32,996 nt of DNA, taken from a virus (lineage: Duplodnaviria > Heunggongvirae > Uroviricota > Caudoviricetes). A model generated the notes under the pieces. The model ran no database searches. It had not been told where the DNA came from and saw nothing but the letters and a program-made list of their open reading frames with translations. Each line of letters opens with the position of its first letter. Positions within the stretch are counted from its first letter, which is position 1. The stretch spans positions 1 to 32,996 of IMG/VR virus record IMGVR_UViG_2778261300_000002; one strand, given 5' to 3'. Both the position numbers and the translations under genes were made by a program. Below are positions 16,831 to 31,444 of the stretch, one piece after another.

Positions 16831-17026
16831 TATGCCTCCTAACTACGAAAGGAAAAGTAAAATGTGCGGTGTATCAAAAAATTAATTTGGCGCGTGAATA
16901 TAACCATTGAAACAGGTTGTTTCACGATCATTTTTTGTTGCTTTTTTGCTCGCGCACATGGACATTTTTTATGCGTTTAGTTTCTAATCCAATAGTTGGT
17001 CGTTTTTTGATTTTGTTTTTTCAGGC

Positions 17027-17049
17027 AACAAAAAACCCGCCGAAGCAGG
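17027..17049 (-). terminator. Rho-independent terminator at the 3' end of the hok-like locus
   Basis: Minus-strand hairpin CCTGC-TTCG-GCGGG followed by TTTTTTGTT. Confidence 0.5.
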
Positions 17050-17139
17050 TTAAGTGCGGTTGCGTTGAAGTCTCCTAGCCAAAGAGTAGCGGTGACAACT
17101 CCCCGCCGATAATCTTAGTTGTTTAATTTCGTAAGCTAA

Positions 17140-17265
17140 CTAGGCTAAAAGATCTATGTTCCCTTGCTTGATGTGCAACTCGCAAGGCGAACCGCGAACC
17201 ATCCAGACCAAAACCAGAATGGTGCAACAAACCACCACCAGACAGAACACATAGTTCCTTCGCAT
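17140..17265 (-). CDS. Hok/Gef-family type I toxin homolog (41 aa, ends at an in-frame TAG; possibly truncated or a pseudogene)
   Basis: Translation MRRNYVFCLVVVCCTILVLVWMVRGSPCELHIKQGNIDLLA has the Hok layout (single TM, then CE-x-[HR]-x-[KR] motif). In-frame TAG is immediately followed by codons for LAYE, the conserved Hok C-terminal motif. Below the 60-aa ORF-track cutoff. Confidence 0.55.
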   Translation of the reverse strand: MRRNYVFCLVVVCCTILVLVWMVRGSPCELHIKQGNIDLLA

Positions 17266-17482
17266 GTATGTTGATTTGAAATTTAGTGGGGAGACATTCC
17301 TGTAGGCAATCTTTGATGGAAACCAGTTAATACTTTATAGTGATATCTCAGATAGTTAAACGCAAGTTAACTTTGTGATTGTTCATATACCCGCATTTTG
17401 TTATAACGAATACTATAGGCAATATGTACTAGACTCATATACAATGACTACATGAGAGCAGGAGAAAAATCTGGAGGTTACG

Positions 17483-17701
17483 ATGGCAAATTTTATACCA
17501 CGCATTTTAGGACTGAAATCAGCCGAAAAGGAAATGCAACTTGCCGAGCGCATCGAAAAATCAGGCGCTACGGAAGTAGAAGTTGTTGGACGCGGTGGTG
17601 TGATAACTTCAAAACAAGCTCTCGCATCATCTGAAACAGTTAAACTTATGAGATTTGAAGCGAAAAAAATAGTCGCTCAAACACCGACTAATAAAGAATA
17701 A
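17483..17701 (+). CDS. Hypothetical small protein (72 aa), first gene of a two-gene cassette
   Basis: ATG at 17483 with GGAGG Shine-Dalgarno 7 nt upstream; stop 2 nt before the next ATG (coupled); AT-rich. Confidence 0.5.
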   Translation: MANFIPRILGLKSAEKEMQLAERIEKSGATEVEVVGRGGVITSKQALASSETVKLMRFEAKKIVAQTPTNKE

Positions 17702-17703
17702 AT

Positions 17704-18468
17704 ATGTTTGCATTCTTGATTATTCCTTTGTTGGTGAGCGGTTTTATTATTATAACCACTCATCCATATCATTTTTACAGATTACATCGTTATGATGGAC
17801 AACTTTTGTATATGAAAGCAGCAAAATACGGACTTTGGTGTCTGATTTGGTCTGTATTTATTGCTTTCGCAATCAAATATTACCTTCCTTCAGTTCATAT
17901 TGTGACTCAAGTCTCACAATCATTGAGTTTAGGAGAAAATTCATATCAAAAAAGAATCACTGTCTGGTTGATCCTTCTTTCGTGTACATCTGTAGTAATT
18001 GCATGGCTGTCAGGTATAATTACGAATTGGTTTACAACTTTTCGTAGCCAAATGATTTATAAACTATTATATAAAAAAGATATAAGTATAGAAGATAGCA
18101 AAGAGTTAGTTAAATTAAGGACATTGCAAGATTTAGTCACCGAAGGATCAATGGATAGTGTTTTTTTTGATTCACTGATAGATAGAAAATCAATTCTGAT
18201 TAGTATGAATAACAAAAAAGTCTATGTCGGAATTGTCAACGCATTAGGAGAGCCAAATGAAAAAGACGGCCCAAACCAGCAAATTTCTATTCTTCCCATT
18301 ATGTCTGGATACCGAGAAAATGATACATTAAATGTATGCTTTACTAATGATTATAACAATATAGAAGATTATGATACAAGTGTTATCATTCCAGTTTCCC
18401 AGATCACTCAAGTTTCATGGTTCACCATTGAAGTTCATGATAAAGTTAATAACAACTGTAAAAGTTAG
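17704..18468 (+). CDS. Hypothetical membrane protein (254 aa; three N-terminal TM helices plus soluble C-terminal domain)
   Basis: Hydrophobic segments FAFLIIPLLVSGFIIITT, LWCLIWSVFIAFAIKYYL, ITVWLILLSCTSVVIAWLSGII; AT-rich; ends at a bidirectional terminator shared with the S8 protease gene. Confidence 0.6.
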   Translation: MFAFLIIPLLVSGFIIITTHPYHFYRLHRYDGQLLYMKAAKYGLWCLIWSVFIAFAIKYYLPSVHIVTQVSQSLSLGENSYQKRITVWLILLSCTSVVIAWLSGIITNWFTTFRSQMIYKLLYKKDISIEDSKELVKLRTLQDLVTEGSMDSVFFDSLIDRKSILISMNNKKVYVGIVNALGEPNEKDGPNQQISILPIMSGYRENDTLNVCFTNDYNNIEDYDTSVIIPVSQITQVSWFTIEVHDKVNNNCKS

Positions 18469-18490: not shown

Positions 18491-18518
18491 AAAAAGAGGC
18501 CTAACGGCCTCTTTATTT
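18491..18518. terminator. Bidirectional rho-independent terminator between convergent genes
   Basis: AAAAA-GAGGCC-TAAC-GGCCTC-TTTATTT; serves the plus-strand membrane protein gene and the minus-strand S8 protease gene. Confidence 0.7.
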
Positions 18519-20772
18519 AGCGTATCTGGATTCTTTCCTCATTACTTACTATTATATCATCACTTTCCCAACCTAATAAATCAAGTTCAGAAACGGCTTC
18601 AGAATAAATATCTTTATCCGCAGATAACGAACGTAAAGTAATCAGCAATACAGCCCGCTGTGGAAACTCAAGTTTATCTTGCTCTGCTCTACGTTGCACA
18701 TCTATTTTTAGTCTCCACGTATTCCCTTGTGTGCCTTGAGGGTACTTTTTCCTATACACTTTTATTGGTGACCATTTAAAACCATTCTCTATGAGATACT
18801 TCTCATATAATTCACTTTTATCCTTTACTTGAGGCACCTTGCTTATGTGTTTTCTTTTTTTTGTTTTATCAAAGTCGTATGTTCCAAAAGAAACATCTAC
18901 ATTAGATCGGCAATATTCTGAAGGGTAGTTCGGATCTAATGGCGGAGAGTAAACAAGAGTCATTAATATCTCTCCTGTAAATTTTCCCTCATCATTTTTT
19001 AAAGAATTAGGGATTACAAATGGATAGCGACCAAACTCTTCACCTTCAAGAGTATTAACTTCAAAAAGAAATGTTATTTCATTTTTCTTACAAGATAACA
19101 TATCTGAAATATTATCTTTTGGAATACCAAAACCATGATAATTTATTTCTTTTGGATCAATTTGATCCGTTCGCTCTAACATCGCTGAATGAATGATTAA
19201 TGCTTTCACTCTTTCCGGTGATGGTGAAATATTGCTATTTAATTGCAGCTCATGCCATGTTGCAGCTGCAATACTTGAGATTAGTGGAGTGGAGAGGCTT
19301 GTACCAACAGATTCCGATAAGTGACCATTATCTCCAATAGCAAATATTCCTAAATCAGAAAAATCAAGATTTGCCCTGCAGTTCCCACCAAAATGAGTAA
19401 CTTCAGGTTTTGGAATACAGGAAGGCCCGGGGCCTCTTCTGGAAAAGGATGATGGTTGGTTTGCTTTTACAATGGAGTCGGCACAATCTACATGTGCAAC
19501 AGATCCCACCGTCAAAGCTCGCACAGAATCCCCCGGAGCGGAAATACGATCACAATCTGATAGCTCCTGAGGCGGCCAAGTGCGTTGCGGTAAAGATTCG
19601 TAATTACCAGATGCAACAACAAAAAGGCATCCATGTTCATCATGCAAATAACTCAACAAATGACCAAGTTCGGAAAAATTATCACTATGGCAGGCTTCTT
19701 TCTGTCCGAGAGATAGATTCCATATTTTTACTTCAGGGAAATCCTCAACAGCTGTTGTAATTATATTCGCAAGTTCTGGTAGTGATAGTTCTGTATCCGC
19801 AGGAAACGCTGCAATATCAACCACCTCCGCATGTGTATTAGGAAACCCTTCGTAGTTTCTATTTAACCCTTTACTATCAATGATTAAACTTGCCACCATA
19901 TTGCCGTGAGTATAATCGGCCTTCCTTCCATTAAGAAAGCTCCTTCTTCCCCATACCCATGGAGAGATATCCCTATTGTTTGGGTCAATACCACTATCTA
20001 TTATCCCTACTAATGGATAATGTGCATCTACATCAGGAATCGGTAATAATGCCTTTTTTTCGGCTGCTGTTTTTGATATTATTGCTTCACTATTATCCAG
20101 CTTAAAAGTGGGCATTGGCTGTAACTTCCTAACACCAATGAAATTTGATAATTCATAAATGTTGTTATTTTCAGGAACTTCAAAATAAAAAATATCATTT
20201 CCAATCGTGTGTTTATTTGGCTCAGGAATATTTAACTCAGCCATCATTAATTTCAATGACTCTTCAAGGGATTTATTTTTCTTCCTATTCCTGTGATCAA
20301 ATAATTTCAAGATATATGTTTTGGCCCCCTCATCTGCTATTCTGTCACAAATGAAGGGTTCGATTTTATCAATAACAGCAATATGGAGCGTACCATTTTT
20401 GGTTTTCGTGCTATTTTGTATTTTAGATTCAAGCCTAGAAAGGCCCTCTTCGGTTACACTTACTAATAATTCACCCAAATTACAACTACCAATTACGGGA
20501 CAGGTTTTGTCTCCAAGCAAACTAGTAGGACGATGTGATTTCGCTAAAGCTTTATCATGCAGAGTAACTTTTGCTACCGCAGGCACTCCCGGCCACTTTC
20601 GGAATGAGTCTCTAAAGTGTTCGGACACACATCTAACTTCATTTTTGAGCCTAGATAATAACTCTTTTGTTACTGGGCGAATGGGTTCCTTTTCAGTAAA
20701 ACCGTAGGTTTTGTCATTAAAATCTTTTGCAAATGTCTTAATGATTTTTATGGGCCTTTCAACTTTGCTCAT
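18517..20772 (-). CDS. S8 subtilase-family serine protease (IetS-like)
   Basis: 751 aa; catalytic triad motifs VGIIDSGID (Asp), HGNMVAS (His), GTSLSTP (Ser); about 240-aa N-terminal and 200-aa C-terminal extensions; AT-rich. Confidence 0.8.
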   Translation of the reverse strand: MSKVERPIKIIKTFAKDFNDKTYGFTEKEPIRPVTKELLSRLKNEVRCVSEHFRDSFRKWPGVPAVAKVTLHDKALAKSHRPTSLLGDKTCPVIGSCNLGELLVSVTEEGLSRLESKIQNSTKTKNGTLHIAVIDKIEPFICDRIADEGAKTYILKLFDHRNRKKNKSLEESLKLMMAELNIPEPNKHTIGNDIFYFEVPENNNIYELSNFIGVRKLQPMPTFKLDNSEAIISKTAAEKKALLPIPDVDAHYPLVGIIDSGIDPNNRDISPWVWGRRSFLNGRKADYTHGNMVASLIIDSKGLNRNYEGFPNTHAEVVDIAAFPADTELSLPELANIITTAVEDFPEVKIWNLSLGQKEACHSDNFSELGHLLSYLHDEHGCLFVVASGNYESLPQRTWPPQELSDCDRISAPGDSVRALTVGSVAHVDCADSIVKANQPSSFSRRGPGPSCIPKPEVTHFGGNCRANLDFSDLGIFAIGDNGHLSESVGTSLSTPLISSIAAATWHELQLNSNISPSPERVKALIIHSAMLERTDQIDPKEINYHGFGIPKDNISDMLSCKKNEITFLFEVNTLEGEEFGRYPFVIPNSLKNDEGKFTGEILMTLVYSPPLDPNYPSEYCRSNVDVSFGTYDFDKTKKRKHISKVPQVKDKSELYEKYLIENGFKWSPIKVYRKKYPQGTQGNTWRLKIDVQRRAEQDKLEFPQRAVLLITLRSLSADKDIYSEAVSELDLLGWESDDIIVSNEERIQIR

Positions 20773-20809
20773 TCATTTTTCCTTTACAATTTTCCAGTTC
20801 TATTTTTAA

Positions 20810-21979
20810 CTAACCCACCTTTGTAGTATCTTGCCTTCTTGAGGATTTACTCTTAGACGTTAACCTAGATACCTTATTTGCTGAAATTGAAAGTAAACTA
20901 GCAATTTTTCTTACTGTAAATACTCTCTCATCACAATTTCTAATTAATTTTGCTAATTTTTCTATTATTTGTTCTGGTTGATCAAACTTCTCTCCTTTAG
21001 ATTCCCAAATAGACATCATAAGAAAAGTTGTATCAAATTTACCATTATTAAATAAAATAGAATGGCGAAGCGCACGCTCGCATATTTGTTCAATAAACGC
21101 ACATGACAAGTCTTTTGAGAGAACAGCGGAGTCATATGCAACATCTAATGTTGGAAAATGCTGATTCAATAATCTTTCATATAGACGTTCTCTCACTTTT
21201 AAATCAGGTAAACCAATTTCGAGTCTGTATGAAAATCTACGCCAAACCGCATTATCTAGTAAATTCTCGTGATTGCTGGCAGATATAAGTACAGTATGTT
21301 CAGGAAGATCATCAATGTTTTGTAACAATGCAACAACAACTCTTTTTAATTCACCCAATTCATGTTGATCATCTCTGGCTTTTGCCAAAGCATCAAGTTC
21401 GTCCAGAAATAGAACGCAAGGTTGATTGCTTGCATACTCAAAAAGAGTGCGTATATTTTTAGCTGTTGAACCTAAATATGACGATACCAACGCATCACAC
21501 CGCGCAGTGAAAAGAGGTAATCTCAACTCAGATGCAATATGCTTAGCTGCAAGAGTTTTGCCACAACCTGGAGGACCAAAAAGTATCATTGAGGATGCAG
21601 CTTTTAATCCATATTTCTTCAGTTCATCTCTTCGTATTACTGATGTAATAAATTCATTAATTTTTTCATTAATCGAGTTATTCAAAATAGGTGGAGCTAC
21701 GTTGATCTCAGGCTCTGTTTTATCTGCCAGATGAAATTTTGTTTCATTATCAGTAGGAACTGAATATGCCTTTGTGGAGAGGCTATTTTGAGTAAAGTTT
21801 GCTTTCTGAAGCGAGAATGTAGTTTCCTGCTTCAAGAAGCTTCGTATTGTTTTCGCGAGTTCGCGCTCACCTTCCGCATCCATCTCTCTTGCAACTTTTG
21901 CTGCAATTCTCTGGAAGGTTATTTTATCGCCTATGACCCCTGACTTTATGAGGTCTACCAATAACTCGCCGTTGTTCAT
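20810..21979 (-). CDS. AAA+ ATPase (IetA-like)
   Basis: Walker A GPPGCGKT, Walker B VLFLDELD, arginine-finger region NAVWRRF. Start set at the ATG giving MNNGELLVDL...; the ORF-track start at 22030 is a TTG. Immediately upstream of the S8 protease gene. Confidence 0.8.
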   Translation of the reverse strand: MNNGELLVDLIKSGVIGDKITFQRIAAKVAREMDAEGERELAKTIRSFLKQETTFSLQKANFTQNSLSTKAYSVPTDNETKFHLADKTEPEINVAPPILNNSINEKINEFITSVIRRDELKKYGLKAASSMILFGPPGCGKTLAAKHIASELRLPLFTARCDALVSSYLGSTAKNIRTLFEYASNQPCVLFLDELDALAKARDDQHELGELKRVVVALLQNIDDLPEHTVLISASNHENLLDNAVWRRFSYRLEIGLPDLKVRERLYERLLNQHFPTLDVAYDSAVLSKDLSCAFIEQICERALRHSILFNNGKFDTTFLMMSIWESKGEKFDQPEQIIEKLAKLIRNCDERVFTVRKIASLLSISANKVSRLTSKSKSSRRQDTTKVG

Positions 21980-22039
21980 GTGATACAAAAATCCCCTAAC
22001 ATAGTTGAAAACCGTGTGATAATGACACAAATCCTGATT

Positions 22040-31255: not shown

Positions 31256-31444
31256 ATGTATAAAATTACCGCTACAATTGAAAAGGAAGGTGGCACTCCT
31301 ACTAACTGGACAAGATATTCAAAATCTAAACTAACGAAATCAGAATGCGAAAAAATGCTCTCAGGTAAAAAAGAAGCAGGCGTTTCCAGAGAGCAGAAAG
31401 TAAAACTGATAAATTTTAATTGCGAGAAACTTCAGTCCTCGTGA
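31256..31444 (+). CDS. ydaC: YdaC-like small protein
   Basis: 62 aa from the ATG at 31256 (GGAGG Shine-Dalgarno): MYKITATIEKEGGTPTNWTRYSKSKLTKSECEKMLSGKKEAGVSREQKVKLINFNCEKLQSS. Confidence 0.65.
   Translation: MYKITATIEKEGGTPTNWTRYSKSKLTKSECEKMLSGKKEAGVSREQKVKLINFNCEKLQSS

Follow-up and report, generated by a model that had tools for sequence, protein, structure and literature searches.

We examined a hok-family open reading frame (ORF) on the minus strand of a 32,996-nucleotide (nt) viral DNA record (IMG/VR record IMGVR_UViG_2778261300_000002, positions 1 to 32,996; this whole stretch is referred to below as the window), and consider it probable that this gene is a silenced, decaying relic of a prophage hok/sok locus, the 5' half of which was replaced by a neighbouring gene cassette beside an IetAS defence system. 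We favour this reading because homology to a hok promoter or leader is lacking, because mok, the Shine-Dalgarno (SD) sequence and sok are all missing, because the tail of the encoded toxin is truncated, and because the gene carries further lesions. An earlier reading of the same DNA made from its letters without database searches (the sequence-only reading) had proposed a Hok/Gef-family type I toxin hidden in intergenic DNA and interrupted by an in-frame TAG, within a hok/sok-type locus; the most likely verdict is that the locus is an already known, ordinary decaying hok remnant.

The ORF (17140..17265, minus strand) starts with ATG, runs for 41 codons and stops at a TAG at 17142-17140; its translation is MRRNYVFCLVVVCCTILVLVWMVRGSPCELHIKQGNIDLLA. 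Against the Pfam profile PF01848 (HOK_GEF), which has a curated gathering cutoff of 22 bits, the ORF scored 46.5 bits (E=2.7e-12, profile positions 3-33 of 42), and with the TAG read through the match covered profile positions 3-42 of 42 at 47.6 bits. By this match, which is well past chance, the ORF is a member of the Hok/Gef family; a chance ORF was ruled out by the Pfam E-value together with close full-length homologues. The product has a basic N-terminus (MRRNY) followed by one hydrophobic helix (VFCLVVVCCTILVLVWMV), as the Hok/Gef family expects, and in alignment its C13 and T15 pair with the conserved C16 and T18 of R1 Hok. Both the 41-codon frame with its Hok layout and the kinship to Hok-family proteins were thus present much as the sequence-only reading had them, with a profile score far above cutoff and full-length relatives at hand. 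The product ends at residue 41, whereas family members have ~50 residues and a periplasmic C-terminal tail of ~20 residues ending A-(Y/C)48-E49, and the window Hok accordingly lacks the C-terminal tail and falls short of the length of an intact Hok. The gene is also already known, and RefSeq/PGAP carries the identical ORF under a Hok/Gef label. In E. coli C41 and ZYB62 the same DNA is annotated 'Hok/Gef family protein' (WP_072032134.1, 126 nt) with no pseudogene mark, and a 98% copy in a German blood isolate bears the same PGAP label (the accessions for these copies are WP_072032134.1 and WP_072661208.1). The description of the gene as hidden in apparent intergenic DNA therefore does not hold. 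The exact 41-residue protein occurred in 174 blocks of the contig index.

A protein search with the window Hok returned six clusters, one of which was the 41-residue E. coli form and five of which were relatives (P0002-P0006) from Salmonella, Citrobacter braakii and metagenomes. These five were 78-85% identical to the window Hok, four being 47-50 residues long and one a 63-residue frameshifted product. Full-length relatives end in ...LSAYLAYEVEQR, and at the codon equivalent to the TAG the residue in P0002-P0006 is Tyr, except for His in one. In the DNA alignments (A3 and A4) the Salmonella and Citrobacter relatives read GCG TAT TTA where the window reads GCC TAG TTA; over the whole 3' coding end the relatives have GCG TAT TTA GCC TAC GAA GTT GAA CAA CGT TAA and the window has GCC TAG TTA GCT TAC GAA ATT AAA CAA C--TAA. 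Because the closest full-length relatives carry TAT (Tyr) at this codon, the premature amber codon (17140..17142, minus strand; equivalent to F45 of R1 Hok) is, on this comparison, a derived one-base nonsense mutation (TAT to TAG) and not a native stop, which bears out the suggestion made in the sequence-only reading. That reading had also seen LAYE in the codons after the stop, and this was confirmed: the vestigial codons (17119..17139, minus strand) read LAYEIKQ, include the conserved Tyr48-Glu49 (TAC GAA), and align with ...LAYEVEQR of the 50-residue relatives. The family hallmark at position 48 (Tyr or Cys, in a TAC-GAA context) falls after the TAG and is lost from the product.

The ancestral stop codon has also been lost, as a 2-nt deletion between 17118 and 17117 shifts the old TAA (17115..17117, minus strand) out of frame (CAAC--TAAG against CAACGTTAAG in alignment A3). 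In addition, a CCT Pro codon (17185..17187, minus strand) occupies the position of the conserved Leu30 (R1 numbering), beside the conserved Cys-Glu; Leu stands there in all five of the non-E. coli relatives, and the window has a Pro-Cys-Glu core. L30 is one of the seven residues conserved in >80% of Hok peptides, and position 48 is also conserved (bioRxiv 10.1101/2025.08.07.668861). Two ways in which the TAG might be decoded were rejected. Amber suppression found no basis in the window's only tRNA, which is Arg(TCT), and recoding by TadA editing, which needs a UACG motif (bioRxiv 10.1101/2025.08.07.668861), does not suit the UAG context here (CCUAGUU).

Loss was seen on the 5' side as well, where the elements of a hok leader were directly found to be missing. 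The Rfam model RF01794 (named sok) describes the hok-sense strand from the 5' end of tac to the hok AUG, with sok antisense within this leader. This model scored 110.3 bits in each of two Citrobacter-type loci (L011 and L014), 106.7 bits in L005 (hokD of an E. coli prophage) and, in the metagenomic loci L016 and L017, 103.8 and 92.5 bits, respectively, with each match stopping at the hok start codon, but gave no match at E<=10 in the window slice 16850-17650 (801 nt). It was also without a match in Salmonella L006 and L015, in K-12 hokD (L004) and in the O157 remnant (L003). On local alignment of the 220 nt upstream of the window ATG with the Citrobacter leader, only a 13-nt block by the start codon, AAATCAAC(A/T)TACA, was shared, and the more distal alignment was at chance level (116 of 300 shuffles were as good). 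These last 13 nt of the canonical hok leader (CAAATCAACATAC; 17266..17278, minus strand) are joined straight to the ATG, and the 11-nt SD segment AGGAGGTTGTA is deleted relative to L011, L014 and L016. No minus-strand ORF begins upstream of hok and overlaps it, whereas the mok frame of Citrobacter L011 is intact and overlaps hok. The corresponding frame in the window reads MSPH*, and the sequence and alignment A3 suggest that it may be a vestige of the mok start (ATG TCT CCC CAC TAA, a 4-codon frame at 17283..17297, minus strand), although the 7-nt similarity there is not significant alone.

Further upstream, AT-rich DNA (17298..17482, minus strand) stands in place of the canonical hok promoter, tac, ucb and sok region, with no Rfam sok match and a chance-level alignment; allowing up to 3 mismatches, we found no tac box (GGGUGCUUGAG) inside the locus or close to it. 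This interval is the intergenic and promoter region of a divergent two-gene unit (17483..18468, plus strand) encoding proteins of 72 residues (17483-17701) and 254 residues (17704-18468), and is about 93% conserved with Salmonella L006 and L009, which carry the same cassette. The sequence-only reading had placed an antisense RNA of a hok/sok-type locus on the plus strand at about 17270..17400. The missing RF01794 match, the leader homology of only 13 nt, the deletion of the SD and most of mok, and the absent tac all contradict this. Nor did an antisense promoter emerge: the plus-strand candidate in our promoter scan, a sigma-70-like site (TTGATG-17-TATAGT; 17313..17341), is aimed at the 72-residue gene, its predicted start (near 17348) lies upstream of the hok initiation region and is directed away from it, and no plus-strand terminator follows within the interval. 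On these grounds the site is predicted not to be a sok promoter and to make no Sok.

The 3' untranslated region (UTR) is where hok/sok character was retained, with the locus keeping a fold-back inhibition (fbi) box and a terminator and lacking the RF01794 leader, mok, SD and tac. The first 3'-UTR hairpin (GGCGGGGA..TCACCGC; 17089..17108, minus strand) is weaker than the perfect GGCGGGGA..TCCCCGCC hairpin of the relatives. The fbi box (CTTCAACGCAACC; 17058..17070, minus strand) is an orphan that lies 2 mismatches from the hokD-type CCTCAACGCACCC, so that of the fbi-like pairing raised in the sequence-only reading the box itself is present and its tac partner is absent. As a candidate for such pairing we considered inverted repeat I1 (17351-17365 with 17060-17074, 15 nt, 80% complementary, overlapping the fbi box), which was judged to be chance; nine pairs of this kind, I1 included, occur within 511 nt, and its 5' arm UUGCGUU is UUGUAUU in Salmonella while the fbi side stays AACGCAC. 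The terminator that had been described 3' of hok is there, as a Rho-independent terminator homologous to that of hokD (17028..17051, minus strand; hairpin and T-run at 17051-17034), and it may still end transcription locally. Over a 38-nt core, the terminator segment shares 94.7% identity with the site that directly follows hokD in K-12, and the terminator (the last ~40 nt of the locus) recurs in >3000 E. coli genomes. The hok 3' end appears to mark a recurrent recombination boundary in lambdoid prophages. Rfam searches of the 3' UTR also gave weak isrK and rsmX similarities (12-27 bits), under the gathering scores (50 for isrK); the isrK matches recurred, at 12-27 bits, in the hok 3' UTRs of seven loci (window 17030-17102, minus strand; L004 2458-2539; L005 1458-1539; L006 4161-4241; L015 2662-2741; L016 2660-2739; L017 358-433). 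This likeness could stem from distant kinship or from a common layout of hairpin, hairpin and terminator. Downstream of the Q gene in Salmonella L006 we saw a true IsrK (79 bits).

Among 5426 complete E. coli genomes, the TAG-bearing 3' module was present in 176, and in three of these it was accompanied by the 41-codon ORF. In the other 173, which are of O157:H7, O111 and similar types (EDL933 among them), the 5' half still resembles hok but contains an extra TAA at the Glu32 position and a frameshift, and the hok copy is unannotated and adjoins a different divergent cassette. In E. coli O157:H7 EDL933 (L003 2445-2790) the hok pseudogene, with a 3' module ~95% identical to that of the window, lies beside a divergent pair encoding an ATP-binding protein and an O-methyltransferase. 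Taken by their sequences, the copies from the window to O157 form a decay series. The replaced leader and the SD deletion were common to every locus with the 72/254-residue cassette, in Salmonella and E. coli, and the same upstream 72-residue gene was found in all contexts read for the 41-residue allele. Leader loss would have preceded the TAG, because the cassette-linked Salmonella loci share the replaced leader yet keep ORFs of 47-50 codons, and because all contexts read for the 41-residue allele have the same upstream 72-residue gene; the L30P change, the TAG and the 2-nt deletion would then be later events in E. coli. Another lesion was observed within this Hok cluster in P0005 (L016 2501-2692, a metagenome), which has an intact leader (RF01794, 104 bits) and a 1-nt deletion in the LAYE region that gives the 63-residue frameshifted product, an independent C-terminal lesion.

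From these observations the history of the locus can be sketched as follows. In an ancestor that this locus shares with some Salmonella prophages, the 5' regulatory half of a hok/sok locus would have been swapped for unrelated AT-rich DNA, now part of the divergent 72/254-residue gene pair beside the IetAS defence system. The promoter, tac box, mok start region and hok SD would have been lost in the exchange, as would sok and its target. What remained would have been a Sok-less, Mok-less and SD-less hok coding sequence (CDS) with its 3' UTR, in which the terminator and an fbi box without its partner persisted. Within the E. coli lineage this would have been followed by the Leu-to-Pro change by the conserved Cys, by the change of Tyr42 to amber that removed the conserved A-Y-E tail, and by the 2-nt deletion that destroyed the old stop. 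Such a locus would picture the erosion of a prophage hok/sok system, from replacement of the 5' half by incoming cargo, through point lesions in the toxin, to full decay as in O157. We infer that hok is not, or is barely, expressed, that the 41-residue product is not an active toxin, and that the locus does not act as a toxin-antitoxin, post-segregational-killing or phage-exclusion module. Published work on R1 hok is relevant here: Hok translation requires mok translation that reaches the hok SD, and loss of function results from Y48N, from stop-codon loss (a 17-residue extension) and from premature stops at 18 of 20 accessible codons, while a C-terminal FLAG tag abolishes toxicity (PMC9841398). 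The periplasmic C-terminal part has been proposed as the toxic domain of Hok (PMC8509063).

Several observations weigh against a silenced relic. Codons 1-41 are intact in the window, and across the hok family the ratio of nonsynonymous to synonymous change (pN/pS) over these codons was 0.13-0.53, which indicates purifying selection; between two leaderless Salmonella alleles we counted five synonymous (Sd) and three nonsynonymous (Nd) differences, a ratio of 0.18 that comes from only eight differences. Leaderless Salmonella copies with complete ORFs of 47 and 50 residues may, by these sequences, be under selection. One of them (P0002, L015 2501-2644, 47 residues) has Cys for Tyr at position 48 (...YLVCEV*), which mirrors the Y/C dimorphism of the family and hints at selection on some leaderless copies. 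In the literature, alanine at all conserved Hok residues, including L30A in R1 Hok, leaves the protein toxic on overexpression. Of catalogued Hok CDSs, ~10% have a start codon and no recognisable SD (bioRxiv 10.1101/2025.08.07.668861). Finally, no promoter emerged on the minus strand ahead of hok in a sigma-70 consensus scan, but the same scan misses the promoters of genuine hok/sok loci, and this absence is uninformative, the scan being too insensitive to exclude a promoter.

These points can be read as favouring the main rival, a still-functional, C-terminally truncated Hok that is expressed weakly, or under certain conditions, from a promoter so far overlooked in the AT-rich spacer and acts as a Sok-free membrane toxin, e.g., in prophage induction or infection. 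The 41-residue peptide would retain its Cys-Glu core along with the transmembrane helix and basic N-terminus, and its start might be an in-frame GTG at 17250 (17250-17248), with AAGGA 5 nt upstream; the 174 contig-index blocks with the exact allele and the lack of a PGAP pseudogene flag fit as well, next to the intact codons, the selection seen family-wide and between the leaderless Salmonella alleles, the high tolerance of Hok toxicity to mutation, the catalogued SD-less CDSs and the insensitive promoter scan. However, the conserved C-terminal tail with position 48 is gone, and Y48N, C-terminal changes and nearly all premature stops abolish R1 Hok toxicity; the 2-nt deletion and L30P suit relaxed constraint; the 5' half is clearly dead in 173 of the 176 E. 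coli genomes with the same 3' module; a constitutively expressible toxin without an antitoxin would be counter-selected; and since the allele's copies hardly differ from one another, their number is put down to recent spread and not to selection. On balance we regard a functional truncated toxin as unlikely. A related idea takes the leaderless, cassette-linked hok as a Sok-independent arrangement that is silent without a promoter and SD and expressed only by read-through, prophage induction or infection. In its favour, the linkage of cassette and hok is conserved between Salmonella and E. coli, two Salmonella ORFs are intact and pN/pS between them is low, though we give this arrangement little credence, and give equally little to its corollary that hok would serve as a membrane-killing effector or as an addiction element for the cassette, with the E. 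coli 41-residue form weakened but tolerated.

The 3' RNA module (hairpin, fbi box and terminator) might alternatively be what is conserved, as a terminator or small RNA at the nin boundary with the hok CDS as a passenger, seeing that a ~130-nt module is 95% identical between the window and O157-type copies with diverged or decayed coding halves, that the terminator core is so widespread (the >3000 E. coli genomes noted above), and that the sub-threshold isrK matches are consistent. We consider this very improbable, as folding of the 118-nt 3' region showed no excess stability relative to shuffles (z=-0.21), the first hairpin is weakened relative to the relatives, the isrK scores (12-27 bits against a gathering score of 50) are far under threshold, and recent recombination would equally explain the identity of the module. 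The model of the sequence-only reading, a canonical hok/sok locus whose hok has suffered a nonsense mutation while its plus-strand Sok at ~17270-17400 is intact, could draw on the plus-strand sigma-70-like site at 17313-17341 and on a surviving -35-like TTGATT of the canonical sok promoter region opposite 17270-17275. Yet RF01794 gave no match at E<=10 against 92-110 bits in true loci, the 18-nt segment with the canonical sok -10 region and the sequence for the Sok body are absent or non-homologous, and transcription from 17313-17341 would meet no plus-strand terminator and run away from hok toward the 72-residue gene; we find this model scarcely tenable. A silenced relic that lost its 5' half to the cassette remains our preferred explanation.

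The window is a rac-like lambdoid prophage with a RalA small RNA, a tRNA-Arg and holin/lysozyme genes. Downstream of hok on the minus strand are an ORF of 70 residues and then genes for DUF1367, DUF1364/YbcO and a DUF1133 Q-like antiterminator. On the other side, the 72- and 254-residue proteins matched nothing in Pfam or PADLOC; N-terminal segments of the 254-residue protein appear hydrophobic. In the E. coli and Salmonella loci read, this pair was without exception tied to leaderless hok, and IetAS lay beside it everywhere but in L019, which has no called gene at the 254-residue position. The pair could be an uncharacterised accessory or defence module. Beyond it from hok, and convergent with it, is the defence pair of IetS (an S8 protease of 751 residues) and IetA (an AAA ATPase) at 18517..22030 on the minus strand, which scored 898 and 436.6 bits, respectively, in PADLOC. 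By PADLOC, IetAS is a complete anti-phage system, which the prophage carries as cargo with its replication genes on one side and the hok relic on the other. The sequence-only reading held that hok adds to the defence-island character of this region, which is a weak claim: hok occupies its ancestral hokD slot of lambdoid prophages, and a survey found hok enriched in prophages and not near defence systems (12% observed against 9.4% expected; bioRxiv 10.1101/2025.08.07.668861). Because of this lack of enrichment, we conclude that the position of hok beside IetAS reflects cargo inserted next to an ancestral prophage gene, and not a defence role of hok.

Other observations on the surroundings concern toxin genes and phage relatives. 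The RalA small RNA (Rfam RF02694, 218 bits; 31262-31440, minus strand) is the antitoxin of RalR/RalA in the rac prophage, and the window thus has one RNA-antitoxin toxin-antitoxin locus elsewhere. Directly downstream of intact hok/sok in Citrobacter braakii and metagenomic prophages (L011 4444-4665, L012 and L014) we saw a 73-residue gene with a Pfam STb_secrete (heat-stable enterotoxin B) match. A tblastn search of the phage collection with the repaired 49-residue peptide found nothing at E<=0.01, and a DNA search of the same collection matched only the ~40-nt terminator, so there was no sequenced phage with this allele in it. Annotation hygiene apart, the locus has little significance. A more fitting label for the ORF would be a truncated and probably inactive allele of a 50-residue prophage Hok, with its Sok/Mok control region lost, and the locus should not be counted as a type I toxin-antitoxin or defence gene in island scoring, the real nearby defence cargo being IetAS.

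Disabled hok loci have precedent: in 1999 Pedersen and Gerdes reportedly described chromosomal hok loci of E. coli inactivated by lesions within or close to them. Degenerate CDSs are an established category among hok genes, and a Hok survey excluded those of <40 residues (5.1% of unique CDSs) and those interrupted by internal stops (2.6%; bioRxiv 10.1101/2025.08.07.668861). Compared with these, the window ORF just passes the 40-residue filter with its 41 residues, and is annotated as a normal Hok/Gef protein and not as a pseudogene. The Hok of Citrobacter braakii (P0004, L011) has 83% identity to the window Hok over 41 residues, and like the window it lies upstream of DUF1367/YbcO/DUF1133 nin genes with the same 3' UTR layout; however this intact locus and the E. 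coli prophage hokD L005 have a full leader (RF01794, 110 and 107 bits, respectively), an intact mok, an AGGAGG SD and ORFs of 50-51 residues. The leaderless alleles of Salmonella enterica (P0003 and P0002; L006-L010 and L015) share with the window the identical cassette of IetAS and the 72/254-residue pair, the same SD deletion, the lack of an RF01794 match, and the same replaced upstream DNA (~93% identical), but they retain full ORFs of 50 or 47 residues, in which codon 42 still encodes Tyr and the L30 position still has Leu.

The window hok and K-12 hokD (relF, Qin prophage) occupy the same slot, between the early region and the nin/Q genes of a lambdoid prophage, in which hok is followed by a small ORF (rem in K-12, the 70-residue ORF in the window), nin-type genes and a Q-like antiterminator, and they have a homologous coding sequence and 3' UTR, an fbi box without a tac partner, and a near-identical terminator; in both, the canonical 5' leader is missing and RF01794 finds no match. 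K-12 hokD differs in that its 51-residue ORF is full-length, has an SD of its own and follows relBE in the same orientation, whereas in the window a divergent gene pair stands upstream, the SD has been deleted and a stop at codon 42 shortens the ORF; the window Hok protein is also nearer to the 'CELHIKQ' group than to HokD. Because the gene order is the same and the loci align through the coding region and 3' UTR, the window hok is the positional counterpart of hokD; among known genes, hokD/relF, a prophage hok that is the classical case of 5' truncation, also comes closest to it.

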